From: a virus
Taxonomy: Duplodnaviria; Caudoviricetes
Length of the DNA stretch: 64,000 nucleotides
Strand: one strand, 5' to 3'
Virus record (IMG/VR): IMGVR_UViG_3300025608_000006
The first letter of the stretch is position 1. Every line of letters begins with the position of its first letter. A model generated the notes under the pieces. The model did no database searches and was not told the DNA's origin. It saw nothing but the letters and a program-made list of their open reading frames with translations. The position numbers and the translations under genes were made by a program. This document shows, in pieces, positions 39,390 to 61,190 of this stretch.

Positions 39390-40811
39390 ATGAGCACAAG
39401 ACAAAACACAGACTATGGGTATGATATACAAAAGGTATATCTTGAGATGATGATGAGCGATGCTGAGAGCTTTGTTCGTTGTCAAGCAGTATTTGACCCT
39501 CAAGCATTTGATAGACGCTTGCAGGAAGGTGCAAAGTTTCTCACAGACTATGTGACAGAACACAACGCACTGCCCACATTCGACATGATCAATGCTGCAA
39601 CCAAAGCAGACCTCAAAGATCCTGGACAACTACAGGAGAATCACTATGATTGGCTGTTGAATGAGTTTGAAACATTCAGCAAGCACAAAGCACTGGAAGC
39701 AGCTATTCTCAAGAGCGCAGATCTGCTGGAGAATGGTGATTATGGAGCGTGTGAGGATCTAGTCAAGAAAGCTGTGCAGATTGGTCTACAGAAAGACTTG
39801 GGCACAGACTACTGGGCTGATCCAAGAACACGTCTAGAAGGCATCAAGAGCACAAACGGACAGGTCAGCACTGGTTGGGCTGCTATGGACAAGAAACTGT
39901 TTGGCGGATTCAACAGAGGCGAGCTGAATATCTTTGCAGGCGGCTCGGGTGCAGGCAAGAGTTTGTTCCTAGCCAACATCGGCGTTAACATGGCTGAGAA
40001 GGGCATGAACGTGATGTACTTGACACTGGAACTTGCAGAGAGCTTGGTTAGTATGAGAATTGACAGCATGGTCACAGGCATCAGCACACGTGATGTGTTC
40101 AAGAGCATTGATGATGTTGAGATCAAAGTCAAGATGATTGGCAAGAAGAGTGGTGCATTCCAAGTCAAGTACATGCCCTCAGGCAAGACTGCAAACGATG
40201 TGCGCAGCTATATCAAAGAGTATGAGATCAAAACAGGCAAGAAAGTAGATGTGCTGTTGATTGACTACTTGGATCTATTGATGCCAGCTGGTACAAAGGT
40301 GAGTGCAGAGAACCTGTTTATCAAAGACAAGTATGTGAGTGAAGAACTGCGTAACCTAGCAATGGAACTCAATACAGTGTTTGTTACAGCGGCACAGCTG
40401 AATCGTGGTGCTGTTGAAGAAATTGAATTTGATCACTCGCATATCTCAGGCGGTCTTAGTAAGATTCAAACAGCAGACAACGTGTTTGGTATCTTTACCA
40501 GCAGAGCAATGAGAGAACGTGGACGCTATCAACTACAGCTGATGAAAACACGTAATAGTAGCGGCGTAGGACAAAAGATTGATCTGGGCTTTGATCTAGA
40601 CACACTGCGCATCATAGACTGTGACGAAGATGAAGATGACAACTACACATCAAGCGGTGCAAGCTCAGGCGCTAGTAGTATTGTAAACAACCTCAAACGC
40701 ACCAACACAGCCAGCGAAGATCCCAGTGAAGGAGCAGCAGCACCCAAGATACGTGCTGAAACAGACAGCACCAAACTGCGAGCATTCCTCAACAATCTTG
40801 GTGACGAATGA
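39390..40811 (+). CDS. replicative DnaB-like helicase (gp41)
   Basis: AGGSGAGKS, YLTLEL, LLIDYLDL, TAAQLNR, QTAD, MKTR. Confidence 0.92.
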   Translation: MSTRQNTDYGYDIQKVYLEMMMSDAESFVRCQAVFDPQAFDRRLQEGAKFLTDYVTEHNALPTFDMINAATKADLKDPGQLQENHYDWLLNEFETFSKHKALEAAILKSADLLENGDYGACEDLVKKAVQIGLQKDLGTDYWADPRTRLEGIKSTNGQVSTGWAAMDKKLFGGFNRGELNIFAGGSGAGKSLFLANIGVNMAEKGMNVMYLTLELAESLVSMRIDSMVTGISTRDVFKSIDDVEIKVKMIGKKSGAFQVKYMPSGKTANDVRSYIKEYEIKTGKKVDVLLIDYLDLLMPAGTKVSAENLFIKDKYVSEELRNLAMELNTVFVTAAQLNRGAVEEIEFDHSHISGGLSKIQTADNVFGIFTSRAMRERGRYQLQLMKTRNSSGVGQKIDLGFDLDTLRIIDCDEDEDDNYTSSGASSGASSIVNNLKRTNTASEDPSEGAAAPKIRAETDSTKLRAFLNNLGDE

Positions 40812-41449
40812 AGCTGTGGATATTTGGTGACAGTTATGCACAAGATCACGCGGATGCAACACAGTGGCAGCATCTACTGGCAGATCATTATCAGTGCGAT
40901 ATAGAATTTGATGCAGCAGCAGGACGCAGCAATGAAAGAATACTATGGGGACTGCAACAAGCAGAGGATCGCATACAAGCACAGGACGCAGCAGTGGTGG
41001 TCACCACTGACTGCTTTCGACGATGGTTCTGGCAGGATTATCCTCAATACGCCAACTACTACAATTTAAAAGAAATCGATATGCCCAACACTGCTGCCAA
41101 CTGGCATGCATTGGAACAGTACACACGCTATCTGGTGAACCCCACAGCAGACATCATCAACTATGAATGTCACCTGGCATGGCTGAACAGTCGAGATTAC
41201 CGCACTGTGATTGTTCCCGGATTTAGAAATCTGCCCACAGAACAAGCACTCACTGAGTGTGTGAGCGAACAGGAATTCTTGGACCATCAACATCGCACCA
41301 TGTGGTATCGCAGAGGAGTAGACACTAGACTGAATCATATCAGCAGCTACAACCATGTGATACTAGCAGACAAAATACGCCAGGTGTTGGACGGCGAAGG
41401 TGAGTTGGATCTCACCACAGATTTTCAACAGAAGTTTCTCGCAGCCTAG
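40808..41449 (+). CDS. hypothetical protein, SGNH-hydrolase-like
   Basis: IFGDSY N-terminus, AGRSNE, late NH. Confidence 0.45.
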   Translation: MKLWIFGDSYAQDHADATQWQHLLADHYQCDIEFDAAAGRSNERILWGLQQAEDRIQAQDAAVVVTTDCFRRWFWQDYPQYANYYNLKEIDMPNTAANWHALEQYTRYLVNPTADIINYECHLAWLNSRDYRTVIVPGFRNLPTEQALTECVSEQEFLDHQHRTMWYRRGVDTRLNHISSYNHVILADKIRQVLDGEGELDLTTDFQQKFLAA

Positions 41450-41596
41450 ATCCGAAAGAGCGCGAAGCGCCCTGCGCCAGATTTTCCAAGAAGCCGCGAA
41501 GCGGTATGCGCTTTTTTAGATACTAGCGTATACCCAAAGCACCCAATACAAATGGTGTCTAGCAAGCTCACAGCAGCCCGTACACACACGGTAATA

Positions 41597-41869
41597 CTAA
41601 CTGCGAGTCAACGTAAACCTAGTGTCCGAACACAGTGCTAACTGCGCAACTGTACAGTGCAAGTCTGACTCAAACACTAGTGAATCTTCTGTTGGCTGAA
41701 AACACTTTATATTATTGTTGATGAACAGTTCTATTGACAGTGCATGCACTAGCGCATCAACAGCAACACTGTTGGTAATAGTATGAAAGTTGAATTTGAG
41801 CGTGTGCTGTTGAGTGTTCATACAGTATTTACACAGTAGACTTACAGTGTGCTCACAGTAGTTGTACAC
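41597..41869 (-). CDS. doubtful small ORF
   Basis: 90 aa ORF in otherwise non-coding DNA; no early promoter module. Confidence 0.3.
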   Translation of the reverse strand: MYNYCEHTVSLLCKYCMNTQQHTLKFNFHTITNSVAVDALVHALSIELFINNNIKCFQPTEDSLVFESDLHCTVAQLALCSDTRFTLTRS

Positions 41870-42183
41870 TAGGAGTGAGGTTCGTTTAAGCTACACTAGG
41901 ATGTACTGTGTACATACACGCTCGTTAGCACTCACGTGTGTGTTCGCTTCGCGAGTATAACAGTTGGAAAAGGGTTCTAGCAGATTAAAAAAATTTCTGC
42001 GCAAAAAATTTTGAGATTGATTTCTATTGTGTGTGGAGGTTTTGCACACTAGCGAAAAAGGTTCTTGTAGAGTAGAAAATCTGCGCTGCGGTTTCATTAA
42101 GCATAGTACTTATAGTTTCAACCAGGTGATTTCTTAACCCCCACCCCCCGATGAAAAATTTTTTTTATTTTTTTTTATTTGAC

Positions 42184-42218
42184 AAAAAGAAAAAAGGAAC
42201 AGTGCGAACACTGCTCCC
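42184..42218 (-). terminator. Rho-independent terminator closing the early array
   Basis: Minus strand GGGAGCAGUG-UUCG-CACUGUUCC followed by UUUUUUCUUUUU. Confidence 0.85.
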
Positions 42219-42246
42219 TCTCTTCACTTCCATCCCGAGAAGTTAG

Positions 42247-42612
42247 TTAGTCTGCTCTACTGCCTGCGTAAGCTGTGAAGCCTGCTGCTGAGAACACCTT
42301 AGCTGCTGCGTATGCACCCTGCTCCTTGGTGTACATACACTGTGTGCCTAGCCCACTGGGGTTCCATATGCTGTATGCTCCTGAGTAGTCCTTCTCAAAG
42401 CCTGCTGCCTTCATACGCTTGCCCAGCTTGGTGTTGCCTTTGATGCCGTAGATGTTAACCCAAGCAAAGCCACAGTAGCCTAGCTCACCGTTAGCAGCAA
42501 TGCTGGCTTCAGCTGCATCACGTGCATGCTGTAGTGCCGCAGCCTTAATAGTTTGCAGGTCCTCTACAGTGAGGTCGTTGAGTACAGTAGTTGATGTGTT
42601 GATAGTAGTCAT
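42247..42612 (-). CDS. early hypothetical protein
   Basis: Own promoter module; GYCGFAWVNIYG. Confidence 0.7.
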   Translation of the reverse strand: MTTINTSTTVLNDLTVEDLQTIKAAALQHARDAAEASIAANGELGYCGFAWVNIYGIKGNTKLGKRMKAAGFEKDYSGAYSIWNPSGLGTQCMYTKEQGAYAAAKVFSAAGFTAYAGSRAD

Positions 42613-42674
42613 TTGCTATGCTCCTTAGCGTTAATGTATATACAGTATAGCACCTGTGTGCTGTGTGTCAACCT

Positions 42675-42947
42675 CTAATATTCGTATACAGTTGGCATTG
42701 TCAAGCCCTGGCCTGCACAGTAACGATCCAGTTCCTTGATCACTCTGCCATAGTAGTTGTACTTGTTCTGTGCTTGTGTAGCTGAGATCTCTCCATCGCA
42801 GTGTAGGTTCTCTGGGCTTAGGTCACTGTCTAGGCTACGTGCTAGATCGTTTACTTGTGTTTGGCTAAGTGGGAAGTTGATCTGCGGTGAGTTAAAGAAG
42901 CTACCCCAGGTGTTCTTCTGGTCGATGTATGCTTGTAAGTTTTTCAT
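42675..42947 (-). CDS. early hypothetical protein
   Basis: Own promoter module; LSPENLHCDGEIS. Confidence 0.7.
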   Translation of the reverse strand: MKNLQAYIDQKNTWGSFFNSPQINFPLSQTQVNDLARSLDSDLSPENLHCDGEISATQAQNKYNYYGRVIKELDRYCAGQGLTMPTVYEY

Positions 42948-43012
42948 AGTGTGCCCTCTTTGTTTAACTTATAATACTACTATAACACCAGTTGTTGAGT
43001 TTGTCAACCGTT

Positions 43013-43798
43013 TTAGTAAGAAATTTTTGCCTCATCCAAGCGAGCAGTGATAGCATCGCCGAACTGCCAACCTTCTGGCATAGTGGTGCGCCATCCCAGC
43101 TCAGTGTCAAGACGCAGTGCATCCTTGGGATCGATATAAGCAATAGCAAGATTGTCTTTGAGCATCTCTGCAACTTGTTCTACACTAGCTCCTGACTGAA
43201 ACATTTCAACACTATGCTTGAACAGTAGATCACAAGGTACAATGTGCTCACGGTATGTGCGAACATCTGTAGGTTCATTAATAGTAATATACCGATCCAC
43301 GCAGTCGAACAAGTGACGATGTAGCAATATTGTATTACCATGTTTAGTCACATCTTCAATAAACCTTGCTACGATTTCAAAGTATGGTTTGCCAGCACTA
43401 TCAAATTTCTTCCAACTGCTGGCACCAGCTGGATCCAACAAGTCACAGTCGCTGATCAATTCATACAGTGCAAGGAAGTCATCATCTAGATTGTCGGTTT
43501 CGTAGCGCAGGTTCTTTTGTGAATCGTCTACAGCAAACCCATTATCAGTTAGGTACTCGACTACAATTGGGCGACTCTGATCACCTTTGCCTCCTGGTAG
43601 TCCAACTCCAATCATCAATCGATTGCGAATGTAAAGAACTTCCAATACAACACCTGATTTAAGTGTTTGAGTATAGCAACGCTTGCCTTGACGGTCTTGT
43701 TTACCGCTACCTTCTACTCCTTCGATACTAAATCGGATACTGCTATCCTTTTGATTGATACGAGCGATAAAATCTTTGATACGTTCTTGAGGAGTCAT
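43013..43798 (-). CDS. early hypothetical protein
   Basis: True start MTPQER at 43798 behind a promoter module; C-terminal REHIVP. Confidence 0.65.
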   Translation of the reverse strand: MTPQERIKDFIARINQKDSSIRFSIEGVEGSGKQDRQGKRCYTQTLKSGVVLEVLYIRNRLMIGVGLPGGKGDQSRPIVVEYLTDNGFAVDDSQKNLRYETDNLDDDFLALYELISDCDLLDPAGASSWKKFDSAGKPYFEIVARFIEDVTKHGNTILLHRHLFDCVDRYITINEPTDVRTYREHIVPCDLLFKHSVEMFQSGASVEQVAEMLKDNLAIAYIDPKDALRLDTELGWRTTMPEGWQFGDAITARLDEAKISY

Positions 43799-43864
43799 CT
43801 TGTTGCCCTTTGCCCTAACTGTTATATACAGTATAGCATCTATCTGCTGATTGTCAACCATTAT

Positions 43865-44120
43865 TCAAAAGAAAAAGCCCGGAGCGTATTGGACGAGGGC
43901 ACATCCTGCTCCGGGCTATCCTAAAGGTTATAGAGCGTGAGGGCATACGCTGTTCTATAACCTGTTACCGCACTGTTCTTGGTGACAGCTTCGGCTTATT
44001 GCAGTCTAGGGACGAGGGCACATCCTTCGACTGTTTGAGCTAGCGCGAACGAGGGCACATTCGTTCTAGCTCAGGTTGGACTGCACCGCAGGGTGCGCTA
44101 CAGTCCTACAGTGTTGCGGA
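43865..44120 (-). ncRNA. Putative multi-hairpin regulatory RNA with UGCCCU(C) loops
   Basis: Four hairpins with different stems share one loop (plus-strand GAGGGCA at 43895, 43939, 44014, 44051); the last hairpin is followed by a U-tract on the minus strand. Confidence 0.6.
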
Positions 44121-44123
44121 GCT

Positions 44124-45125
44124 CTATGCTCGACGCATCACCGTATTCTCTGCCATCGCTTCCCACTTGTCGGGGAAAGCGCCAGCTAGGTCTGCTACCT
44201 TGAGCACTGTGCGCAGCGATAGCTCACGCAGCTTGCTCTTGTTGATCTCTACGAAATCCATGATCTCCGTCTTGACTTCTTCTGACAGTTTACGGTCATC
44301 CAACATGCCATCTTGTACCACTTGCTTGATGCGCAGTACTTTGTCCTTGTCACTATCAATAGTCAAGTCCATGTAGTGACAGCGGCTCTCCAGTGCTTCC
44401 AAGTGCTCACGCAGCTTGCCTTTTACCTTATCGAACTTCAAGTTAGTGATAAAGATAGCACTAGCTTCGAACTTGAACTTGTCTGGCACACCTTCGTTGC
44501 GCAGCTTGAAGCTGTCAGTGTTCCAGTGGATCCAACGATTCTTCTTTGAGTCCAATGCTGCTTTCAAGATGTTCAAGCTTAGGTCATCTTGGAAGATGCT
44601 GTCACAGTCATCGAACACCACTACCTTGCCTTTGTCTGCCATGTTGAACAGTTTGCAGTAGAGTCCAATTGGGCTCATAGCGCCTTTGATAACTTCGTGT
44701 GTCTTGCCTGCACCTAGTGTTTCCATAGTTGCATAGCGATCCAGCACTTCTTCAACACCATGGCTCTTGCCCACGCCCGGAGGACCTGAAACGATCATAG
44801 CGCGAACGTTTCCTTTCTTTACCGCTTTGGTCATGTCTTTGAGCATATCAAAACGTTCGCGGATGCGCTCTACAATCTCAGCGTCTGACTCCTCAGGCAA
44901 ATCGTTCTTCTCTGCTTCACCGACCAACTCGTAGTCCTCCGGGCTGCTGCATTTGATCTTGATGTTGCGGTTGGGCAAGCCTGTCACAGGAGTTGCGTCA
45001 ACTGTGACTGCGCCGCCGCTGGTTCCCATAGTAAACTCTTTGGCCATTGGGAATACAATACCGCTCATGTCTGTTTCTTTTCCACGTAGTCTATAAGTAC
45101 CATTTACAATCTTAATGTTCTGCAT
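44124..45125 (-). CDS. AAA-family P-loop ATPase
   Basis: SGPPGVGKS Walker A, VVVFDDCD Walker B, FITN sensor, ALESRC arginine finger. Confidence 0.85.
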   Translation of the reverse strand: MQNIKIVNGTYRLRGKETDMSGIVFPMAKEFTMGTSGGAVTVDATPVTGLPNRNIKIKCSSPEDYELVGEAEKNDLPEESDAEIVERIRERFDMLKDMTKAVKKGNVRAMIVSGPPGVGKSHGVEEVLDRYATMETLGAGKTHEVIKGAMSPIGLYCKLFNMADKGKVVVFDDCDSIFQDDLSLNILKAALDSKKNRWIHWNTDSFKLRNEGVPDKFKFEASAIFITNLKFDKVKGKLREHLEALESRCHYMDLTIDSDKDKVLRIKQVVQDGMLDDRKLSEEVKTEIMDFVEINKSKLRELSLRTVLKVADLAGAFPDKWEAMAENTVMRRA

Positions 45126-45193
45126 GTGTTTGCCCTCATGTGTTTGTTTAACTTATATACAGTATAGCATCAATCTAACGTTTGTCAACCACT

Positions 45194-45370
45194 TTATGTA
45201 AATATTAGATAAAGAATTCCAAGTACTGCAATCACCACAGCAGGTGGTACCAGTGTGAAGATCAAGCTGTGAACACACTGTTCCCAAAAGCCCACGTACT
45301 CGTTGCAGTTGTGACACTGTGGAGCAAAGAAGTTCTTATCCATTTGATGACAGTTTGGACATACGCTCAT
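45194..45370 (-). CDS. small Zn-ribbon membrane protein
   Basis: MSVCPNC...QCHNC followed by a hydrophobic C-terminal helix; AGGAG RBS. Confidence 0.55.
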   Translation of the reverse strand: MSVCPNCHQMDKNFFAPQCHNCNEYVGFWEQCVHSLIFTLVPPAVVIAVLGILYLIFT

Positions 45371-45371
45371 C

Positions 45372-45509
45372 TTATAATACTCCTACAAAGGATGGTTGAA
45401 GGACAGCACCTGCCCACATAAGTCCTGCGCCAAGCCATATCAGTATTGCACTCAGCAAGCCTGTTTGCCACAGCACCAAAAGGATTACTAGTTTGATCAG
45501 CGTTCCCAT
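45372..45509 (-). CDS. small membrane protein
   Basis: MGTLIKLVILLVLWQTGLLSAILIWLGAGLMWAGAVL. Confidence 0.5.
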   Translation of the reverse strand: MGTLIKLVILLVLWQTGLLSAILIWLGAGLMWAGAVLQPSFVGVL

Positions 45510-45510
45510 C

Positions 45511-45786
45511 TTAGCGATCCTTGCGATCAATAGTGATCGTTCCCTGCATCCATGATACAATCAACTCACGGTCTTCATCTGAGAAGTCTTTAGCAGTTGT
45601 ACCAAACGTAGCGCCAAAGTGTGTGAGCGCATTGCCCACATGGCTTAGGTTGTTGAGTGTGCGCAAGCCATCTTCAGTCACAGGGCCAAGTCCGTGAATC
45701 TTACCGTACTCTTCTGAGTAGTTCATCATCTCACGTCCGATAGTAGCCAGTTGCTTCTGTTCAGTTGTTGCTTCGAAAAATGCCAT
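45511..45786 (-). CDS. early hypothetical protein
   Basis: Own promoter module. Confidence 0.65.
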   Translation of the reverse strand: MAFFEATTEQKQLATIGREMMNYSEEYGKIHGLGPVTEDGLRTLNNLSHVGNALTHFGATFGTTAKDFSDEDRELIVSWMQGTITIDRKDR

Positions 45787-45896
45787 TGTGTTTGCCCTTT
45801 ATCTAATTGTTATATACAGTATAGCTTCACTTGCGGAGTTTGTCAACCCCTAATTTGGAAGTCCGCCATTCCAGTCATCACAGGGATCATCATACA

Positions 45897-46115
45897 TTAT
45901 TCGTCCTCCTGTTCACGACCTTGTGCAAAGTCCAACAAGTCTGCTGCCAATGCTGCTGCTTGTGCGCGAGTCAACTGCACCCAGCTAAACGGGCCGCCTT
46001 CGCTCCAGCTGCCTACTTTGCTCTGTGTCAATTGCACACAAGTGCCTCGGTCGCTGCCTCCAAAGAAGCGTGTCATTGTTACGCCTTCTGCGTGTGTTTT
46101 CAATTCTGTTGACAT
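45897..46115 (-). CDS. early hypothetical protein
   Basis: Own promoter module; RFFGGSDRGTCVQLTQ. Confidence 0.65.
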   Translation of the reverse strand: MSTELKTHAEGVTMTRFFGGSDRGTCVQLTQSKVGSWSEGGPFSWVQLTRAQAAALAADLLDFAQGREQEDE

Positions 46116-46180
46116 CGTGTGCTCCTCTAATGTCTAACTTATACATACACTATAGCACCACTGTGCTAGTTTGTCAACCA

Positions 46181-46345
46181 CAAAAGTAGCAGGAGGAGTA
46201 CTTTTTTTGATCGAGGGCACAATCAAATGTTCCTCTACTCCTGCTATTTGTCCGGGCTCTGGGGCAAGTCTATTAATAGTCCCCAGCGCCGACAGTCGCT
46301 ATGTGATCTGTGCTTCACGGTTATTAGCACGAGCGCTGTCTACTC
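46181..46345 (-). ncRNA. Putative structured RNA 3' of the tRNA cluster, ending in a UGCCCU-loop hairpin
   Basis: Stems GACAG/CTGTC, GTGCT/AGCAC, CTGGGG/CCCCAG and TAGCAGGAG/CTCCTGCTA enclosing TTTGAT-TG-TGCCCT-CG-ATCAAA. Confidence 0.5.
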
Positions 46346-46349
46346 AGTT

Positions 46350-46426
46350 TGGCCTCCCCTGCAGGATTCGAACCTGCGACCCACAGCTTAGAAGGCTGTT
46401 GCTCTATCCAGCTGAGCTAAGGAGAG
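46350..46426 (-). tRNA. tRNA-Arg(UCU)
   Basis: CTCTCCTTAGCTCAG...ACAGC-CTTCTAA-GCTGT...GGTTCGAATCC...GGCCA; encoded CCA. Confidence 0.95.
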
Positions 46427-46430
46427 TATA

Positions 46431-46507
46431 TGGTGGGCCCACCGAGACTCGAACTCGGAACCTACGGATTATGAGTCCGGTGCTCTAACCAATTGAGCTA
46501 TAGGCCC
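46431..46507 (-). tRNA. tRNA with CAU anticodon, probably Ile2 (lysidine) rather than Met
   Basis: GGGCCTATAGCTCAATTGG...CTCATAA...GTTCGAG...GGGCCCACCA; acceptor stem resembles bacterial tRNA-Ile2. Confidence 0.85.
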
Positions 46508-46513
46508 TGTCTT

Positions 46514-46598
46514 TGGTGCTCCCTGTCGGACTTGAACCGACATGCCTTGCGGCGACAGATTTTAAGTCTGTTGTGTATACCTATTCCACCAAGGGAGC
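46514..46598 (-). tRNA. tRNA-Leu(UAA)
   Basis: 85 nt with long variable arm; ACAGA-CTTAAAA-TCTGT; encoded CCA. Confidence 0.93.
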
Positions 46599-46612
46599 GA
46601 ATTCTGTTTTAC

Positions 46613-46771
46613 TTATGCCCCATCATCCATTTCTAATTCAAACTCTGAAGCCATATCTTCTTCAATAGCTTCAGCAAGTGCTTCATACTTGGCTCGCAGT
46701 TCGCTTACCTGCCGCAGCGACAGCACACGATCCAAGTCTTTGATAACATCTTGTAGTGTAATATAATCCAT
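46613..46771 (-). CDS. small acidic hypothetical protein
   Basis: MDYITLQDVIKDLDRV...; TAATG coupling with the upstream gene. Confidence 0.55.
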   Translation of the reverse strand: MDYITLQDVIKDLDRVLSLRQVSELRAKYEALAEAIEEDMASEFELEMDDGA

Positions 46772-46968
46772 TACTGCACCCATACGTGGTTGAATTTGGT
46801 TGGAAGGTTATCACAGCTGAAGATCTCATCTGTGTAGTTAACGACTTTGACGCACTCATTTGTTGCGTAGCTAACATGGACATCTGGCGCACTCAACGCT
46901 GAGTTCATTGCGTATCCTAGTCCTGCTAACATAGTCCCTGCAAACGCGATAGTAAAAACTGCTTTCAT
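46771..46968 (-). CDS. early membrane-anchored hypothetical protein
   Basis: Own promoter module; N-terminal hydrophobic helix; CVKV...C. Confidence 0.65.
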   Translation of the reverse strand: MKAVFTIAFAGTMLAGLGYAMNSALSAPDVHVSYATNECVKVVNYTDEIFSCDNLPTKFNHVWVQ

Positions 46969-47042
46969 TGTCGTTGCCCTTTTGCTTAACTGTTATATAC
47001 AGTATAGCGCCGAAACGCTATACTGTCAACACCTAATTTGCC

Positions 47043-47291
47043 TTATTCAGCAAAAACTTTTGCACGTGATCCTGTGATGTCACGAGCACTTACTGCATAG
47101 CGAGCCTTGCCCGTTGTAGCAGTGTCCACACGCACGTTCAATCCAGCAGCTCGCAAGTCGCTGATTCGTGCAGTTAGATTTTGGATTCCGAAACGTGCCT
47201 TTGCATCAGCAGCAGTGATTGTCTTGCCAGTGCCACGCAGGTAAGTTTCAAGGAATGCAGTTTGGTTTGATTTAATAGTAGTAAAGCTCAT
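47043..47291 (-). CDS. small helix-turn-helix DNA-binding protein
   Basis: LETYLRGTGKTITAADAKARFGIQNLTARISDLRAAG winged-HTH-like pattern. Confidence 0.65.
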   Translation of the reverse strand: MSFTTIKSNQTAFLETYLRGTGKTITAADAKARFGIQNLTARISDLRAAGLNVRVDTATTGKARYAVSARDITGSRAKVFAE

Positions 47292-47390
47292 AATATGTAC
47301 CCTTTAGAAAGTTTAGTTTAAAGTTTGCCTATCAACACTTTTTGCTCCAGTGTCTATATAGTATAGCACCTTTGCGGGATATGTCAACCC

Positions 47391-47585
47391 CTAATTGAAC
47401 ATATCGTCCCAAGCATCTTCAGTGATGCCAGTCTTGATGAACTCACGCTCACCAGCTGTTAGTTGGGGGAATGCATCCTGTACCAACAGTTTGCCTTCAA
47501 AGTAGGCTTCAACCTGCTCGTAGGTTACGTCAAGATCCATGGTGTTCTCTTGGCCGTTGAATGGATTAGTACGTGTGATTTTCAT
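47391..47585 (-). CDS. early hypothetical protein
   Basis: Own promoter module; QDAFPQLTAGEREFIKTGIT. Confidence 0.7.
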   Translation of the reverse strand: MKITRTNPFNGQENTMDLDVTYEQVEAYFEGKLLVQDAFPQLTAGEREFIKTGITEDAWDDMFN

Positions 47586-47650
47586 AGTGTTTGCCCTTTT
47601 CCCTAACTGTTATATACAGTATAGCATCAATTGAGGATTTGTCAACCTCT

Positions 47651-47848
47651 TTATGCAGTTTTAGTGCCAGTCTTTAGATTATATTCAAAGCGCAGACCGC
47701 CCAGTACATCACGACAGCGGATGTAATCATAGTAGCCTTGTGCCTTCATTGCTTGATGAACAGCCTTGCCATCCGCAGCGTTTGATACAGTGTCTACCCA
47801 CTGCTCTGCACCACCGTCTTTGATTCCGAATATTTTGTAGCTTCTCAT
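47651..47848 (-). CDS. early hypothetical protein
   Basis: Own promoter module. Confidence 0.65.
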   Translation of the reverse strand: MRSYKIFGIKDGGAEQWVDTVSNAADGKAVHQAMKAQGYYDYIRCRDVLGGLRFEYNLKTGTKTA

Positions 47849-48062
47849 CGTATTGCCCTTTGCCCTAACTGTTATATACAGTATAGCACACTCTACGGAT
47901 TTGTCAACCCCTAATTGTCACTAACAATAAATTCACGCTCTTCTGGCAGGTATGCTATCAGCACATCTTTGGGCACTCGTTGCAGCATCTCGTAGAGTGC
48001 AGTTGTGTCCCGATCTTCGAGGTCGTTCTCTATCTGGTGAATCACTTCGTCCCACAGGTCCA

Positions 48063-48344
48063 TCATAGCGCATACTCCTTATTGGATTTCAACTGCCACT
48101 TCTCTAACACAGGCAAGCCGTATTCATCTTCGTCCACAACCACATAGGCAACTGTCTTCTTGACTGTGCCATAACGGTAGCCAGTCATGCCAGCAACACC
48201 GCCACCACCTACCCATATCTTGTGCAGCGTGTCCTCATTGCAGTTGTTCAACGGATCATCGTTGACACTATACTCGAAGTAATTGCCTGTGTCCTTCTCA
48301 ACGAAGCAACCTATTGGATCTTTGGTGTAGGTGTAGTATGCCAT
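48063..48344 (-). CDS. early hypothetical protein
   Basis: Own promoter module; TVKKTVAYVVVDEDEYG. Confidence 0.65.
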   Translation of the reverse strand: MAYYTYTKDPIGCFVEKDTGNYFEYSVNDDPLNNCNEDTLHKIWVGGGGVAGMTGYRYGTVKKTVAYVVVDEDEYGLPVLEKWQLKSNKEYAL

Positions 48345-48443
48345 GTCTTGCCCTCATTGCCTAACTGTTATATACAGTATATGCTCTAATAGGGGATCTG
48401 TCAACCATTATTTGGAAAAAAGATCCCCTTTAGAATCAATAGC

Positions 48444-49010
48444 TTACAAGCCTGTGGGTGCTAGGTTTACTTCTTCGTCTTCATCCTCTTCTTCTTCCAT
48501 TTCCTCATACTCTGCAAGACGCTCGTCTAGAGCATATTCGTCCACAAGATACTCTGGGATCATGTTGCGAACAGTGTCTGAGGTTGCACCTGAATAGTCA
48601 TAGTGGTCGTCAGCACCTTCTGAATCCCAGTAGCCAACGAAGCACATACCGCCTTCTTCGTAGTATGCTTCTAGGTATACGCCGTCCATGTCATCACAGA
48701 ACGCTGAGTAAGCGTCAATGGGCGGGCTCCAAGCCGAATCAAACCAACCTGTGATCTCACTAGTGCCGTCACCGTTGTCTGTGAACTCAAGACCTTCAGT
48801 ATCAACATCCCACTTGGTCCCCCAGTTAGTGACACACCAGTCATACCAGTTAGGCCCGTCACTAGGAGCAGTTGTCCCTTCTAGTTCCTTAGGCATAGGA
48901 ATCATTGCGTTCAACAAGCCGCTGCCTTCTTGATTAGCGTCTTCCCACAGTTCCTTGATAGTCTCTGTGGAACCTTTGATTGTGATTGAGTTGTTGCACC
49001 AGTTAGGCAT
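48444..49010 (-). CDS. MPNWC-type (DUF1281/YubB ferredoxin-like) protein
   Basis: MPNWCNN, WYDWCVTNWGTKWD, FDSAWSPP, YYEEG. Confidence 0.7.
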   Translation of the reverse strand: MPNWCNNSITIKGSTETIKELWEDANQEGSGLLNAMIPMPKELEGTTAPSDGPNWYDWCVTNWGTKWDVDTEGLEFTDNGDGTSEITGWFDSAWSPPIDAYSAFCDDMDGVYLEAYYEEGGMCFVGYWDSEGADDHYDYSGATSDTVRNMIPEYLVDEYALDERLAEYEEMEEEEDEDEEVNLAPTGL

Positions 49011-49161
49011 AGTCAGTCTCCCCCATAAGTTCTGTATCTACAATATCGGAATGTTCAAACGAGTAATCACACTCGCTCATGATGTCCTGGATGTCAGCGT
49101 CCCTAAGGACCTCCAACGCCACTGTGACATAAACTGTCTTGGTGTTGTCAGCGCCTGCCAT
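49003..49161 (-). CDS. small acidic hypothetical protein
   Basis: MAGADNTKTVYVTVALEV...; coupled to both neighbours. Confidence 0.5.
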   Translation of the reverse strand: MAGADNTKTVYVTVALEVLRDADIQDIMSECDYSFEHSDIVDTELMGETDYA

Positions 49162-49379
49162 TAGCAGTCCTCCCCAAATGCGTCATACAGTTCTGTCAAG
49201 TAATCAACGTCTGGCTCATCGTCTTCGAAGAACCGCTCGCTCAACTCATTACAGTCAAGCATATCCTCAACGTCATCGTTGCTCATATACTTGAGCGCCA
49301 TAGTCAGCATGTCTTCTGCTGACACCATGCCGTTCTCAACCAACTCAAGTGCGATATCTCTGTAGTTTGTCATTTGCAA
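49161..49379 (-). CDS. early hypothetical protein
   Basis: Own promoter module; LKYMSNDDVEDML. Confidence 0.65.
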   Translation of the reverse strand: MQMTNYRDIALELVENGMVSAEDMLTMALKYMSNDDVEDMLDCNELSERFFEDDEPDVDYLTELYDAFGEDC

Positions 49380-49447
49380 ATGCCCTCTGCTTTGTTTAAC
49401 TTATATATACACTATAGCACCGAATGCGCTATGTGTCAACCTCTTTT

Positions 49448-49651
49448 TTAAGCTATAGCTTCTTCTTTTGTTTTGCGATGATAGAACGCTTCCAAGTCTA
49501 CGCAGCCGTCTACTTCAAGACCTGCGAGCAGCTGGGTGCGTTCTTGTTCATCGAATGCTTGATGATATTCATCCGGAGTATATTCACTAGCAGCGCAGTA
49601 GTTGGCGCCTTCCCAAACTAGTACAAAACGGTTGAAACGTACTTCTGACAT
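49448..49651 (-). CDS. early hypothetical protein
   Basis: True start MSEVRF behind a promoter module. Confidence 0.6.
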   Translation of the reverse strand: MSEVRFNRFVLVWEGANYCAASEYTPDEYHQAFDEQERTQLLAGLEVDGCVDLEAFYHRKTKEEAIA

Positions 49652-49723
49652 AGCAGTAATCCCTCTGCGTTTGTTTCTATACAAGTAGTATAACACAGCC
49701 CGAAGGCTGTGTCAACCTTTTTT

Positions 49724-50206
49724 TTAGATGTCGTAGCCTTGTGCTTTGAGGCGTGCCACTTCAAGTGTTACACGAGTCTCCAAGTCGTCAAAGATTGGAA
49801 AGCCAAGTGCGTCCGAACCTGCATTGTAACGGTCATGCACAATCCAACCTGCGGCAGTGTGCAAGTAAAAGTATTCGCAGCCGCTGCCTGTGTAGTATTC
49901 AACAAACTCCTGCACAGTGTCAAACTCGACTGCTTCTGTGTTGCTTTCGCCTCTGTCACGTCCGTAGAATACAGTAACGCCTTCCTCTGGAGTTGCAAAG
50001 CTGTGTCCGCTGCCTGGCATTGGAAAAATTTCTTCTGCCATGTAGCTTTGATCGCCTAGCTCTACCATCTGTGCAACTTTGCGAGCTTGCTGGTAGTGCT
50101 CCTGCAACGTGCGTCCTGCGCCTGCTACATAGCCATCATAGTGTGAATACTTTGCACGGATTTTGCCTTCTGGTGTTTTGTAACCAATTGCTGAACGAGT
50201 TCCCAT
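49724..50206 (-). CDS. early hypothetical protein (MGTRS-type)
   Basis: Own promoter module; MGTRSAIG...HYDGY...YGRDRGE...EYFYL. Confidence 0.7.
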   Translation of the reverse strand: MGTRSAIGYKTPEGKIRAKYSHYDGYVAGAGRTLQEHYQQARKVAQMVELGDQSYMAEEIFPMPGSGHSFATPEEGVTVFYGRDRGESNTEAVEFDTVQEFVEYYTGSGCEYFYLHTAAGWIVHDRYNAGSDALGFPIFDDLETRVTLEVARLKAQGYDI

Positions 50207-50285
50207 TGCATATGCTCCTTATGCGTTTGTTTAACTTATACATACACTATAGCACCTGAATGCTATAGTGTCAACCTTTTTCTGC

Positions 50286-50561
50286 CTATGCCTCCAAACT
50301 TTTTAGCATGCTGGCTGTGACCTTCCACTTGCCCTGCGTGGGCGAGTTTACAATCACTGTCTTGCGATTGATTTTCTCAACCATTCCCGTCACAGTGCGT
50401 CCACCGCGTCCTGTGAAGCTTACAGCATCGCCTACAGTGAGTGAACGTGCTGTAGCTCGTGCGTTGAATGTGCGTTGGAGTTTGATTGCTTCAACCACTT
50501 GGTTGATCTCATCGTTGTTCATGTTGCGGATTGCTGTGATTGCGGTTTGTACGTTGTTCAT
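50286..50561 (-). CDS. early hypothetical protein with SH3/KOW-like C-terminus
   Basis: Own promoter module; LTVGDAVSF...GMVEKINRKTVIV...WKVTASML. Confidence 0.7.
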   Translation of the reverse strand: MNNVQTAITAIRNMNNDEINQVVEAIKLQRTFNARATARSLTVGDAVSFTGRGGRTVTGMVEKINRKTVIVNSPTQGKWKVTASMLKSLEA

Positions 50562-50604
50562 CTTGTAGCCCTCTTTGTTAACTTATACATACACTATAGC
50601 ACCA

Positions 50605-50823
50605 CTATGCTAGAATGTCAACCTCTTTTTCAAACTTTTCTACAGTTTCTTCAAATTGTTTTGCAAGCGATACCAAGTTCATCATAGCAAACTCAGCTTC
50701 CATGCTGCCTGCTTCTGTTGTGTCCAGTATGCGGATGCGCTCTGCCATCATGCCTGCGATTGCTTTATATGCACCGCACTCACGTGCTGTCTTCATGCTT
50801 TGATCAAAAAATGTATCGTTCAT
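50605..50823 (-). CDS. early hypothetical protein
   Basis: Own promoter module; C-terminus overlaps the next promoter. Confidence 0.65.
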   Translation of the reverse strand: MNDTFFDQSMKTARECGAYKAIAGMMAERIRILDTTEAGSMEAEFAMMNLVSLAKQFEETVEKFEKEVDILA

Positions 50824-50887
50824 CTTGTTGCCCTCTTGCTTAACTTATACATACACTATAGCACCAGTCGTGCTAGTTGTCAACTCC

Positions 50888-51280
50888 TTATTGCAAGAAA
50901 TCTTCCTTTAGGATCTCCAGCATACGAACTGCTTCTGTACGTGCTTGATCAATAGCTTCAATTGCCATGCCGTTGATAACGCCGTCTGTTTTGTCATCTT
51001 GTGCCAGCCAATCTGCAGGTGACTCTGCTACAATTGAGCCTAGGTAGCTCTCGCCCATAACCTTGCCGTCATACTTGGCTTGCACACGAACGATCATGTG
51101 CTGCCAAAAGCCCGACTCCAAGTTTTCAATCAACTCAGGGTAGTAGTCTGCCTCAGTGTCAAACAACAGATCCAACTGAGTGTCGTCTGGAGCGAACGCA
51201 ATCTCTACTGTGAACTGCTCGTGGTCGAACTCTTCCTCTACGTAGAAGTTGTCGTTGTTTTTGAAAAATGCGTGTGTCAT
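50888..51280 (-). CDS. early hypothetical acidic protein
   Basis: Own promoter module. Confidence 0.65.
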   Translation of the reverse strand: MTHAFFKNNDNFYVEEEFDHEQFTVEIAFAPDDTQLDLLFDTEADYYPELIENLESGFWQHMIVRVQAKYDGKVMGESYLGSIVAESPADWLAQDDKTDGVINGMAIEAIDQARTEAVRMLEILKEDFLQ

Positions 51281-51429
51281 GTGCTTGCCCTTTGTTCTAA
51301 CTATACATACACTATAGCACAGGTGTGCTGGGTTGTCAACCTCTAATTTAAACTTTTTTCTGAGGACCCAACAGCGGGGCCTACAGGTGTGTACACTATA
51401 GCACAGTGTGCGCTATAGTGCAAATTATT

Positions 51430-51675
51430 TTATAGCTGCTCTAGTGCAGCTTCTATTATATTATGCGCACAGCTGTCTGTTGCAAAGCCCTCCTCTTGTG
51501 CAAAGTCGACGCTGCTGCTGCACATAATAGTGTCTGTGTTTACATTAACGTTGTTTGCTGTAAACAGTGCTGCAAGTTGTGCTGCTGTGTATGCAGCGCC
51601 TACAACTGTGTTGTTTACTGTTACAACAATTGCAGCGTCTGTTGCGTTTAGGAATACGTAGTTTGTGTTTTGCAT
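51430..51675 (-). CDS. early hypothetical protein (GA/TC-poor segment)
   Basis: Own promoter module; CSSSVDFAQEEGF. Confidence 0.6.
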   Translation of the reverse strand: MQNTNYVFLNATDAAIVVTVNNTVVGAAYTAAQLAALFTANNVNVNTDTIMCSSSVDFAQEEGFATDSCAHNIIEAALEQL

Positions 51676-51804
51676 AATGTGCTCCTCATATGCTTGTTTA
51701 ACTTATACATACACTATAGCATATGTATAAGCAGTTGTCAACTGAAAGTAATTGTTGGAAAACAAGCACTTAGCATTTTTTTACTAAGTGCTTGTTTTTG
51801 TTGG

Positions 51805-52074
51805 TTAAATTGCGCAATGTACAATGCGCAAATAACGTGCTGTGCTAGGCATAGCGTATGCAAACGTTTTAGTTGCGTGTACACATTTAACGTTTAGTGC
51901 TTGCTGCAACTGCTGCAATACACTAGGAGGCATGCTGCTTACAGTAAAGCACAAGTTGCGCAGTTTAGGATTTACACACATATTTGTATAAGTGTGCTTG
52001 CTTACAGCAATATTGTTTTGCTTTAGGATGTTACGTACAATGTTACGTGCTGTTTTAGTAGTAGTATTTTGCAT
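51805..52074 (-). CDS. early hypothetical protein lacking Asp/Glu/Gly/Trp
   Basis: True start MQNTTTK behind a promoter module. Confidence 0.55.
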   Translation of the reverse strand: MQNTTTKTARNIVRNILKQNNIAVSKHTYTNMCVNPKLRNLCFTVSSMPPSVLQQLQQALNVKCVHATKTFAYAMPSTARYLRIVHCAI

Positions 52075-52165
52075 ATAAAGCCCTCTATGCTTGTTTACGT
52101 TATATACACTTATAGCACAAGTGTGCGCTGCTGTCAAGTGTTTTTTTAACAGCAGCACAACTTTT

Positions 52166-52369
52166 TTACAAGTACTTGCTTTCGTTTACCTCGTCGTTGC
52201 TGTAGCGTGTAGCTGCTACAATTGCAGCATAATCGGAGTTTGCCGCTAATAGCTGCTGCATAACAGCAACAAGCTCCTCTGCTGTGTCTATGCACAGTGT
52301 TTGCGTTTGTGTTACGTACTCGAGTTGTTGTGCGCAGTGCTGTAGTGCTAGTGCTTGTGTAATTTGCAT
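52166..52369 (-). CDS. early hypothetical protein
   Basis: True start MQITQ behind a promoter module. Confidence 0.55.
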   Translation of the reverse strand: MQITQALALQHCAQQLEYVTQTQTLCIDTAEELVAVMQQLLAANSDYAAIVAATRYSNDEVNESKYL

Positions 52370-52461
52370 AGTTTGCCCTCTATGTTTGTTTACGTTATAA
52401 CTTAATATAGCACAAGTGTGCGCTGCTGTCAACTGAAAAATGCTAACAGCAGCAACTTTTT

Positions 52462-52755
52462 TTATGCAACTTGCATACTTGTAATAGTGTCTGCATAGTA
52501 GTGCAGCATGCTATACATGCATTCTCTAACAGCAGTATCCGCAGCACTGTTTAAACAGGCAGCTGCTAAACTGTTTACTGTTGTGTGCTGCATGTAGTTG
52601 TCGTATAAAAATTGCATTTTATAGCAGTTGTCTAATATGCAGTAGTCGTTTGCTTCCGCTACGCTGTCATGTGCAGCGTGTGTAATTGCTTCCGCATAGC
52701 TTGCAATTGCGCTTGCTACTACTTCCGCATAAATTGCTTGTTGTGTGTTTTGCAT
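52462..52755 (-). CDS. early hypothetical protein
   Basis: Promoter module with a TAGACA -35 variant. Confidence 0.55.
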   Translation of the reverse strand: MQNTQQAIYAEVVASAIASYAEAITHAAHDSVAEANDYCILDNCYKMQFLYDNYMQHTTVNSLAAACLNSAADTAVRECMYSMLHYYADTITSMQVA

Positions 52756-52892
52756 AGTAATGCCCTCTATGTTGTTAACTTATACATACACTATAGCATA
52801 TGTTTGTGTGTTTGTCTAGCGAAAAGAAGTGTTGGAAAACAAGCACTTAGCATTTTTTTTGTAAGTGCTTGTTTTTGTTAATTAAATTATTT

Positions 52893-53126
52893 TTACGTTT
52901 GCCATGCAACTACACTGTCATTTTGTATAGCAACACGTACATTTTCTAATGCGCCATTTGCTGCACTACGCTTTGCAAAAAAGTGCATAATGTCTCCGGC
53001 ACTGTGTTTTGTTTTGTTGTAAAAATTAAAACTTGTGTATACACACTTGTCTACTGCACAGTAAGCAACAGCAGTTGCGTTAGTAGCAAGGTCGGATACA
53101 TTATTAGCATTTGTGTAACGTAGCAT
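52893..53126 (-). CDS. early hypothetical protein
   Basis: Own promoter module. Confidence 0.55.
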   Translation of the reverse strand: MLRYTNANNVSDLATNATAVAYCAVDKCVYTSFNFYNKTKHSAGDIMHFFAKRSAANGALENVRVAIQNDSVVAWQT

Positions 53127-53309
53127 ATTATAGCCCTCTATTTTGTTAACTTGTACATACAGTATAACACAAACAGCACAGTTGTCAACTGAAAAATGAA
53201 CAAAAATGAACAGCTAAGTCATTGACTGCCAACAGTTTTAAATTTTATTTTAGCCAATACAATCAAACACTTAGCAGCACCTCGGGCACAAATGTGAACA
53301 CAGTCGGCA

Positions 53310-53642
53310 CTACATGCTCCAGTATGCCTCACTAGCTGGGCTCATATAGTTGGGAGTGTTGACCGACTCAGTATACAGTGTGTTGCTCATCATATTTGTG
53401 CGTGTGCGACTCTTCTCAATAGTACTATGGAAGTAGTTGGCCTCTGCTATGCCATAACGGTACTGAGGATCGTTGACTGAGTCCTTGAGGTCTGCTCTAT
53501 AACGTTTGCTCATCTTAGTAAGAGCAGCTTGGGCAGCACTCATGGTCTTGTAGCTCTTGCGGTGATCTGGACGAACCTCGCCCGAACGTGTGTCCATCTT
53601 GCCCATGATGTAAGTTGACGATTTTTCATAAATGTAATACAT
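53310..53642 (-). CDS. early hypothetical protein
   Basis: Own promoter module; ESVNTPNYMSPASEAYWSM. Confidence 0.7.
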   Translation of the reverse strand: MYYIYEKSSTYIMGKMDTRSGEVRPDHRKSYKTMSAAQAALTKMSKRYRADLKDSVNDPQYRYGIAEANYFHSTIEKSRTRTNMMSNTLYTESVNTPNYMSPASEAYWSM

Positions 53643-53701
53643 AGTGATCCCTCTACGTTTGTTAACTTATAATACTACTATAGCACCATACTGCAGGCTT
53701 G

Positions 53702-53917
53702 TCAACCTTTTTGTTTGAGGCGCCGCCTTCTTTGAGCAGCCACCTGGGGTCTGAATTGTTCTTTTAGTGTGCTCAAGTTCTCGCTCACAAACTCTTCAAA
53801 TGAATATGGTTGAACCTGACGGAAGCCATCATACTCATCTCGATTCTCCCAGTAGCGATTGGTACAGAACACTCTGAAACTTCTTGGACGATGATAGCTT
53901 GAATGTGAATGACTCAT
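53702..53917 (-). CDS. early hypothetical protein
   Basis: True start MSHSH behind the first promoter module of the array. Confidence 0.6.
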   Translation of the reverse strand: MSHSHSSYHRPRSFRVFCTNRYWENRDEYDGFRQVQPYSFEEFVSENLSTLKEQFRPQVAAQRRRRLKQKG

Positions 53918-54025
53918 GTTATAGCCTCTGATCAATTAACCTATACACTAACTATAACACCAACAGTTGCGTTTGTCAACCTCTGATTCACAAACTCAAC
54001 AACAAACAACAGAACCTAAACCCCC

Positions 54026-54632
54026 AACAGCGGGGCCTTTACAGCACAGTGTACAGTATACTAGTAGTAGAGTCAATAGTAGTAGAGCTGAGTGTGAACA
54101 GTATAGTAATAGTAGTAGTAGAGCACAACCTATACAGCATAGTAGTAGCAGTAGTAGTTGAGCTAGAGTTGACACTATACAGTCAGTCAGGTGCTGTACT
54201 AGTAGTAGAGCTCTACGAGGAAGGTGCCAACAGCGGGGCCTTTGACAGCATACACGGTGTCATACACGGTGTCAACACCATCAAATGTGGTTTTCTTGGT
54301 TGATTTTGGGTGAGTAGATGTTATAATATAACAGTTCTCTTCACGGTTTGCACCACTATATATAGTATGAAAAAAATTCTTGCGCTCGGTCACGAGAGGC
54401 ATAGTTCAAATACTTTTGCAGGTTTGCATTCTACAGTTTACACCTTTGCAATTTGCAACTCACACTCGTTAACAGCGGGGCCTTTGTGTGTGTACGTTGG
54501 TTGTATAGGCTCAATAGCTCCGCTCAACTACTACTACTACTACTAGCAGTATCACTACTACTACTCATACTACTCATACTCAAGATGGATAGGCTCTTCT
54601 ACTCCAGTAGATTGTTCAACAGCGGGGCCTTT
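54026..54632 (+). repeat. Four direct copies of AACAGCGGGGCCTTT (fifth, partial copy at 51370)
   Basis: Exact 15-mers at 54026, 54229, 54471 and 54618 within low-complexity (TAG)n/(CTA)n DNA. Confidence 0.85.
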
Positions 54633-54717
54633 GTGTGTTTGCTACTACTACTATAGTCCGTGTATACGCATATGCCTTTTATGCTTGACAGAGTGTATAG
54701 TGTGTGCTATATAGTAG

Positions 54718-54987
54718 ATGTATTTGTATTGTATAAGTGATGGTTCATTGTGTAAGTTTGGTTATAGTGTGGATCCTCAACGTAGATTGCGTAGTTTACA
54801 AACGGGTAGTAGTAGTCAATTAGAGTTGGTTCATAGTATACTAGTAGATGTAGATCAGGGTAGGGTATTAGAGCGTACATTTCATCGTGAGTATGCTCAT
54901 CGTCGTGCTAGAGGGGAATGGTTTCGTTGTACAGTAGAGGAAGCAGTAGTGTGGTTAACGTGGTTTGAAATACACTATGTTAACTAG
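54718..54987 (+). CDS. T5orf172/GIY-YIG-like protein
   Basis: YLYCI...KFGYSVDPQRRLRSLQTG...LERTFH...GEWF; TTGACA promoter upstream. Confidence 0.75.
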   Translation: MYLYCISDGSLCKFGYSVDPQRRLRSLQTGSSSQLELVHSILVDVDQGRVLERTFHREYAHRRARGEWFRCTVEEAVVWLTWFEIHYVN

Positions 54988-55195: not shown

Positions 55196-55302
55196 TAGTG
55201 GTGTCTACACCTTCCACAGTCATGTAGTGCAGCAGTTGCAGTAGACTTTCTCTAGTGTGACTGTTGAGTGTGCTGTTGTTGAGTTGTAGTAGTATTTGTC
55301 GT

Positions 55303-55946: not shown

Positions 55947-56049
55947 CGTTGTGCTCCTGTGCGTTTGATATACTATTACTTATACCAACACAGTCTAGCA
56001 GATAAATATTTGTGACTAGCTAGTATAGTCCACAACAGGAGAATTTCCC

Positions 56050-56271: not shown

Positions 56272-56287
56272 AAGTATAAATACTAGC

Positions 56288-56548: not shown

Positions 56549-56550
56549 CT

Positions 56551-61189: not shown

Positions 61190-61190
61190 A

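Follow-up and report, generated by a model that had tools for sequence, protein, structure and literature searches.

The closest functional counterparts of the element described here are small RNAs of Gram-positive bacteria, namely the S. aureus RNAs RsaE and RNAIII, the M. tuberculosis RNA 6C, and LhrC of Listeria (PMC4132741), which direct a repeated C-rich loop motif against the G-rich ribosome-binding sites of many mRNAs. In RsaE and RNAIII (PMC2790875) and in 6C (PMC6486639) the C-rich loops pair with Shine-Dalgarno regions and thereby block initiation, and the GC-rich loop contacts formed by RNAs of this type can work without a chaperone (PMC2790875, PMC6486639, PMC4132741). The loop motif of these RNAs is UCCC, in contrast to the GCCCUC or CGCUCC of the phages considered below, in which the element is also distinguished by being phage-encoded, by residing in a 3'UTR, by facing a private box that is restricted to early genes, and by the joint switch of box and loop between clades.

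Among phages, a 2010 review of post-transcriptional control in T4 stated that a functionally characterised trans-acting regulatory RNA was still lacking for that phage (PMC3014915). The early mRNAs of T4 do carry a class-typical ribosome-binding-site motif, GGAG, through which they are selectively inactivated by RegB (PMC3014915). RegB is a protein nuclease helped by S1, whereas the selective agent in the present case would be an RNA and the early motif is GAGGGC rather than GGAG, although the logical role is alike.

Antisense control of ribosome-binding sites is known from the c4 RNA of P1 and P7, and also from P22 sar and lambda OOP, in which a processed phage RNA pairs with sites covering the ribosome-binding site; in P1 and P7 the antisense RNA and its targets differ together between these related phages. 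All of these act on a single operon in temperate phages; the phage considered here is lytic and T4-like, and the proposed targets of its RNA number dozens of early genes. In terms of position, the element is equivalent to the 3'UTR-derived small RNAs of enterobacteria of the CpxQ, SroC and DapZ type, which lie between a stop codon and their own intrinsic terminator and include the terminator hairpin, but which are not built from repeated loops. A succession of many hairpins sharing one repeated loop motif is shared with CsrB and RsmZ, but the loops of the latter carry GGA and bind CsrA, whereas the loop motif here has a complementary class of RNA partners.

The locus lies in a 64-kb window (the whole stretch of DNA that was analyzed) from an uncultured marine T4-like phage, in which an early AAA-ATPase gene precedes the hairpin RNA. 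The gene (44124..45125, minus strand; 333 aa) belongs to phrog_1250, a family annotated with unknown function, and is preceded on the same strand by its own GAGGGCA box (45131-45137) and promoter (45161-45188). Its 3'UTR is formed by a structured element at 43866..44123 on the minus strand, comprising six hairpins and a U-run, which extends from the ATPase stop codon to the terminator and lies ahead of the next early promoter. This promoter, of the sigma-70 type (43830-43857, minus), belongs to the downstream early cassette (43804..43857, minus), the doubled box of which, AGGGCAAAGGGCA (43804-43816, minus), lies upstream of an ATG at 43800. The layout is that of the 3'UTR-derived small RNAs, with the stop codon at 44124, the terminator hairpin at 43876-43917 and the U-run at 43866-43875, and the same layout recurs in the relatives. 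The segment represents a conserved structured RNA, which probably forms the 3' end of the early AAA-ATPase transcript, its strand being assigned from context. A search of Rfam with positions 43700-46700, at the gathering thresholds and at E <= 10, recovered only tRNA-related hits and no homology to RsaE, RNAIII, LhrC or 6C.

The minus-strand sequence of 262 nt folds at -111.5 kcal/mol (z = -8.4 against dinucleotide shuffles), and none of 200 shuffles folded as well; the corresponding values for the plus strand are -106 kcal/mol and z = -3.8. Folding recovers six hairpins after the ATPase stop, in line with the five to six predicted in the initial annotation, and the four motif sites that it had listed (43895, 43939, 44014 and 44051) fall precisely on loops. 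Proceeding along the minus strand, H1 (44078..44106) has an apical GCGCACCCUGCGGUG and a C-rich (CCC) loop distinct from GCCCUC. H2 (44036..44073) combines an outer GAGCUAG/CUAGCUC stem with an inner CGAAUG/CGUUCG stem and the loop UGCCCU at 44052-44057, and H3 (44002..44033) an outer CAGUC/GACUG stem with the inner hairpin GGAUG-UGCCCU-CGUCC, its loop being at 44015-44020. H4 (43967..43995) is without the anti-box motif and has a CCAYYAAGA-like loop, while H5 (43925..43963) has a 10-bp outer stem and the apical hairpin AGCGUA-UGCCCUC-ACGCU with the motif at 43939-43945 (UGCCCU at 43940-43945); its type, GCCCUCACGCU, is found again in most relatives. H6 (43876-43917) has a GC-rich outer stem and, again, the inner hairpin GGAUG-UGCCCU-CGUCC with its loop at 43896-43901. 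Hence UGCCCU(C) loops are present in four of the six hairpins (H2, H3, H5 and H6), the kind of repeated unpaired C-rich loop motif that typifies the anti-Shine-Dalgarno small RNAs, and all five GCCCUC sites on the minus strand of the window lie in hairpin loops. The stems had been described as unrelated, which is correct for the outer stems as they were written, but three of the four motif hairpins share the nearly invariant inner core GGAUG-UGCCCU-CGUCC. The two hairpins without the anti-box motif, H1 with its apical GCGCACCCUGCGGUG and H4 with its CCAYYAAGA-like loop, are also conserved in sequence in close relatives (L001, L003, L030 and L048).

The stem AGCCCGGAGC/GCUCCGGGCU of H6 is followed directly by the U-run UUUUUCUUUU (43866-43875, minus), which is the architecture of an intrinsic (Rho-independent) terminator and bears out the terminator previously placed after the last hairpin. 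H6 is therefore the intrinsic terminator of the ATPase transcript and itself displays an anti-box loop; a simple terminator scanner missed it because of its long inner loop region. The same architecture with other outer stems was found in 17 further hairpins of the relatives.

The candidate targets lie in the early-gene region at 42953..53138 on the minus strand. Approximately 23 small early genes are encoded on this strand between 42.6 and 54 kb, most of them with their own TTGACA-N16/17-TATACT promoter and a short leader. AGGGCA is situated 3-8 nt upstream of the ATG in 13 of the early genes and AGGGC in 16, with three further genes having the variant AGGGCU. The first bases of the AGGGCA boxes, all on the minus strand, are at 52766, 52379, 51291, 50834, 49386, 48354, 47859 (second copy 47866), 47597, 46980, 45798, 45136, 43809 (second copy 43816) and 42957, two of the early leaders having a doubled box (43804-43816 and 47854-47866). 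The sequence confirms that UGCCCU(C) is the exact complement of the AGGGCA box of the 13 early genes, and also the more specific claim for the ATG at 42947, where GAGGGCACA pairs with UGUGCCCUC over 9 nt. The plus-strand genes, which encode structural and other late proteins, use AGGAG behind TAAATA-type late promoters. All 17 GAGGGC/GCCCTC sites of the window are confined to 40175-53138; none was found in the remaining 51 kb, against about eight expected, suggesting that box and anti-box are avoided outside the early region. On both strands, GAGGGC and GCCCTC are wholly absent from 1-40000 and from 53200-64000. A separate feature of the early cassettes is a GTATATAACAGTTA-like sequence immediately after the -10 element, which is conserved across the cassettes (42.9-53 kb, minus) and in the relatives to an extent exceeding the needs of sigma-70 recognition.

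A search with the ATPase protein identified 51 loci in IMG/VR, and a later profile search added 80 more. At a full-length ATPase identity of at least 63%, every locus has 2-5 GCCCUC-loop hairpins after the ATPase stop, and in all about 37 related IMG/VR phages retain such hairpins, with unrelated outer stems, in the same place. Downstream of the arrays there is usually a U-run, then a sigma-70-type promoter, then a leader containing (A)GAGGGCA. In 31 non-redundant 3'UTRs, GCCCUC occupies 81 of 121 predicted hairpin loops and the median sense-strand z is -5.0. Single-sequence folds show that the outer stems of the relatives are wholly different yet still paired. The 16-nt core of the inner hairpin is identical in 16 of 18 hairpins; alignment of 18 type-1 hairpins with MAFFT and RNAalifold matched only this invariant part, for which reason the outer stems have no formal covariation score. 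Among the relatives, 289 distinct GAGGGC boxes were counted at 3-8 nt from the ATG, with the profile G(77%)-AGGGC-A(73%)/U. Taking the complement of the loops yields G(91%)-AGGGC-A/U, which matches the box profile at seven positions but not beyond them, so that here, as in the anti-Shine-Dalgarno class, the loop motif is complementary to the ribosome-binding sites of several mRNAs. The box keeps a tighter distance from the ATG (sd 1.6 nt) than from the -10 element (sd 3.7 nt), and in 61 of 295 cases it is not preceded by a promoter. The box is thus anchored to the start codon, is in part promoterless, and accordingly works at the mRNA level.

The exact 16-mer of the inner hairpin was found at 35 loci in IMG/VR, 26 of them in phages of this family, and all seven newly found loci that were checked lie behind an ATPase gene; the other nine are chance matches inside GC-rich coding sequence. 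In a 275-kb relative, the remaining GCCCTC sites formed no hairpin loops on folding and were rejected; at least one of them resembles a box serving a gene on the opposite strand, and others look coding. No close homolog of the ATPase was found in cultured phages, the best identity being 46%, and in one of these phages, PA5oct, there is no room for an array because the next gene begins within about 40 nt of the ATPase homolog. Two nearly identical phages, L007 and L008, differ by an insertion of about 450-700 nt between the ATPase stop and the array (L008, 2189-2640), with the array remaining intact downstream of it.

A different version of the same arrangement is found in two sister lineages (clades B and C), which use the early box A-GGAGCG-A-A (GGAGCGAA), represented by 156 distinct examples situated 3-7 nt from the ATG. 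In one of them, CCG-AUUCGCUCC-CGG hairpins with variable outer stems occur directly after the ATPase stop, two per 3'UTR; in the other, a single CCG-AUUCGCUCC-CGG hairpin follows one extra overlapping gene and precedes a separate terminator. The loop UUCGCUCC is the 8-nt complement of the box GGAGCGAA, and the loop AUUCGCUCC is its exact complement. The more distant ATPase lineages, to which these two belong, have neither GAGGGC boxes nor GCCCUC loops, and lineages without either type of box are also without either type of loop. A cross-table of box type against loop type for 113 distinct ATPase proteins contains 34 cases in which both are of the GAGGGC/GCCCUC type (A/A), 32 in which both are of the GGAGCG type (B/B), 39 with neither and no A/B combination; its off-diagonal rows represent truncated loci or a single hit in coding sequence. 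In a maximum-likelihood tree of the 96 ATPase rows that reach 300 aligned residues, a limit that leaves out most of the two-hairpin clade along with other shorter matches, state A forms one group produced by one change (support 93/55), nested among lineages with the GGAGCG state. These comparisons of sequence indicate that box and loop changed together between clades. Within a clade neither the box core nor the loop core varies, so this co-variation amounts in essence to a single evolutionary switch. Two checks that had been put forward for the element gave positive outcomes: the loops do co-vary with the early box in related phages (34 A/A, 32 B/B, 0 A/B), and they are retained in relatives having the box, since every GAGGGC-box relative has GCCCUC loops behind the ATPase.

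An AT-rich sister lineage has the AGGGCA box at the ATPase gene and no loops in the DNA examined, pointing to a system that may have been lost or an array that may have moved. Its members L106, L109, L112, L114 and L115 have the ATPase ribosome-binding site AAAGGGCACAAAUG, no array after the gene and few other boxes. A further observation concerns a conserved single-stranded (A/C)GCUCCGC immediately after the ATPase stop (44108-44123, minus), which in 19 of 31 related 3'UTRs also occurs within the initial 45 nt. This sequence is similar to the CGCUCC loop found in the sister clades and complements GGAGC, the core of a minority early box, AAGGAGCA, which in the window precedes 42612, 50206, 51675 and 55946; it may be a remnant of the sister-clade loop or a second targeting site.

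A fifth anti-box hairpin in the window (46187..46246, minus), with the loop UGUGCCCUCG and GCCCUC at 46213-46218, adjoins on its upstream side a tRNA-Leu/Met/Arg cluster (46350-46598), and an early promoter (46149-46177) follows just after it. Such a hairpin, in the orientation of the tRNAs and after the last of them, is also present in 9 of the 22 relatives that have a tRNA cluster in the DNA examined; instances include L003 (approximately 4325-4400), L009 (approximately 3790-3850), L012 (approximately 300-380), L016 (approximately 3940-3990), L030 (approximately 3110-3170), L032 (approximately 4290-4390), L070 and L079. Co-transcription of this hairpin with the tRNAs would be expected. In T4, two small stable RNAs of unknown role, RNA C and RNA D, are transcribed with the tRNA cluster (PMC3014915); the resemblance is one of position only. 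GCCCUCC is also found between the -35 and -10 elements of an early promoter in L009 (1880-1960) and L018 (2820-2900); a transcript reading through this region can form a duplex of about 13 bp between GCCCUCC and the GGAGGGC box of the gene served by that promoter. By analogy with the T4 genes e, soc and 49, a gene with such a spacer would be translated only from its own promoter.

Transcription of the segment is suggested by contigs from marine metatranscriptomes, which cover 43941-44137 and 43999-44104 without a mismatch; in relatives, similar contigs run from the 3' end of the ATPase gene into similar CGAGGGCAC hairpins. These are assembled contigs, which carry no strand, ends or expression level, may include DNA carry-over and are uninformative for the parts they leave uncovered. 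Of the sampled words of the element, 52-70% are present in three small RNA libraries, two of which (X20 and X21) contained just 18-19% of the words from the 2.2 kb around it; this hints at an abundant RNA, with strand and ends not given by these data and DNA carry-over possible.

The sense (minus) strand is favored as the active one from its context, namely the course of the array from stop codon to U-run, the restriction of promoters to the minus strand, the post-tRNA copy and the shuffle z-scores. The array runs from the stop codon to the U-run on this strand in all clades, with the stop codon falling inside the first hairpin in some relatives, and in 43500-46700 only minus-strand promoters were found. 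Neither an internal promoter for the element nor a T4-type late promoter (TATAAATA) ahead of the array was detected. Of 31 relatives, 30 have a lower z-score for the sense than for the antisense strand; a lower sense MFE is seen in just 17, the sense strand shows no enrichment of G.U pairs, and the helix-level count (26 G.U against 15 A.C) is too weak for a strand call. The reverse alternative, in which a plus-strand transcript would present GAGGGCA loops mimicking the box and serve as a decoy for 30S subunits or for a repressor, would equally account for the joint switch of box and loop from clade to clade. It also draws on the antisense MFEs, which are similar to the sense ones, and on the H5-type hairpins, which contain an A/C mismatch on the sense strand and gain a G.U closing pair on the other, although in the type-1 hairpins a U.G pair favors the sense strand. 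On the sense strand, however, the array occupies precisely the interval from stop codon to terminator, its plus-strand end has no U-run, and the post-tRNA copies are oriented as the tRNAs are. The initial annotation had taken a cUUCGg loop and a few G.U pairs to favor the plus strand, but this hairpin is not kept in the relatives and the G.U counts are undecisive. Its alternative of a plus-strand sponge comparable to CsrB or RsmZ is disfavored both by the strand evidence and by the loops, which read UGCCCU in sense and AGGGCA in antisense and hence have no GGA (ANGGA) motif for a partner of the CsrA type; nor is there any promoter-like site in 43500-46700 for the strand that would show the motif. 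We accordingly regard a plus-strand decoy as very improbable.

Other explanations dispense with pairing in trans. The loops might fold back solely on the box of their own ATPase (operon) mRNA, for autoregulation or for protection through contact of its 5' and 3' ends, with the box on other early genes existing for an unrelated reason. The linkage of the array to the ATPase operon in every clade, the box of the ATPase gene itself and the retention of AAAGGGCA at the ATPase start in the AT-rich lineage are all compatible with this; but 2-5 loops per RNA exceed the need of one target in cis, the separate copy behind the tRNA cluster has no box-bearing mRNA there, and the box marks a whole class of genes and has changed together with the loops, which renders restriction to cis unlikely. 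Operator hairpins such as lambda boxB and the MS2 operator are near-invariant stem-loops, and the fixation of the 16-nt core in 16 of 18 hairpins, like that of CCG-AUUCGCUCC-CGG in clades B and C, might similarly mark sites for a phage or host RNA-binding protein involved in titration, stabilization or antitermination, with the loops never pairing with boxes. This would leave unexplained why loop and box are exactly complementary in two different motif pairs, and no candidate protein was identified; we hold it, too, to be unlikely. Viewed as DNA, the loop motif is the box in reverse orientation, and both might even be one double-stranded site of an asymmetric DNA-binding protein; the site would follow early promoters in one orientation and form a cluster behind the ATPase gene in the other, and an altered specificity of that protein would change both together. 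Its invariable location in the unpaired tip of hairpins with co-varying stems, and the distance that the box keeps to the ATG and not to the promoter (61 of 295 being promoterless), make this very improbable indeed. Finally, multiple 3' hairpins protect mRNAs from exonucleases and H6 has the shape of a bona fide terminator, such that the hairpins could be ordinary terminator or 3'-end stability structures that match the box by coincidence. A chance match is extremely improbable, given two independent complementary pairs of 7-8 nt conserved over some 70 phage lineages and the absence of the motif from the other 51 kb of the window.

The interpretation that we consider reasonably likely is that the sense-strand 3'UTR RNA pairs with the early ribosome-binding sites and thereby, most probably, shuts off early translation. 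The RNA would be made as the 3' end of the early transcript, possibly being released as a separate small RNA, and, being highly structured, would outlive the short early mRNAs and accumulate. Its loops would then pair with the early boxes through loop-to-single-strand contacts of 6-9 GC-rich base pairs, competing with the weaker contact between GAGG and the anti-Shine-Dalgarno sequence of the 30S subunit and keeping the latter off. The early class would be progressively shut off as the RNA accumulates, and the late messages with AGGAG would be immune. The median energy predicted for loop-to-leader duplexes is -13.7 kcal/mol with early leaders and -6.0 kcal/mol with late ones (P = 5e-10), values that are upper bounds since loop strain is ignored, and the canonical 16S anti-Shine-Dalgarno tail gives -6.3 kcal/mol on the early leaders. 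Because the RNA, like its supposed targets, comes from an early promoter, shut-off requires differential stability, which is assumed here.

The matched change of box and loop supports, at the level of sequence, the earlier proposal of a multivalent 3'UTR-derived RNA matched to the early ribosome-binding sites; the suggestion that accompanied it, of an adaptor supplying an anti-Shine-Dalgarno function, found no support. Repression is the most likely effect, with activation or protection of the early messages being possible. Conservation of the inner stems, GGAUG/CGUCC in clade A and CCG/CGG in clades B and C, goes far beyond what presentation of the loops requires, which suggests an added constraint in the form of loop geometry or a protein partner. 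The element would qualify as an anti-RBS RNA, and would be new among these in being phage-encoded and multivalent, in its private class-specific box and in its two apparently co-evolved motif pairs.

Early-mRNA shut-off in the T4 family has been attributed to proteins such as RegB and RegA. Searches for RegB (PF10715) and RegA (PF01818) in the 275-kb relative, which is 77% complete, gave no match, the control genomes being unmatched as well. If the above interpretation is true, these phages would have arrived at a different solution to early shut-off, in which a single RNA reads the private ribosome-binding-site code of a whole temporal class. It is conceivable, though doubtful, that box and loop form a phage-private translation code with two or more alleles, among them GAGGGCA/UGCCCUC and GGAGCGAA/UUCGCUCC, in which the RNA acts both as an early-to-late switch and as a determinant of exclusion or immunity, and that conflict between phages drove the switch from one allele to the other. 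Under such a code, the multivalent RNA would silence every early gene with a matching box, including those of a superinfecting related phage. The two natural motif pairs constitute a ready-made specificity control and a possible source of orthogonal parts for translation control. As the family is widespread in marine T4-like phages, the element may shape the timing of infection in the ocean.
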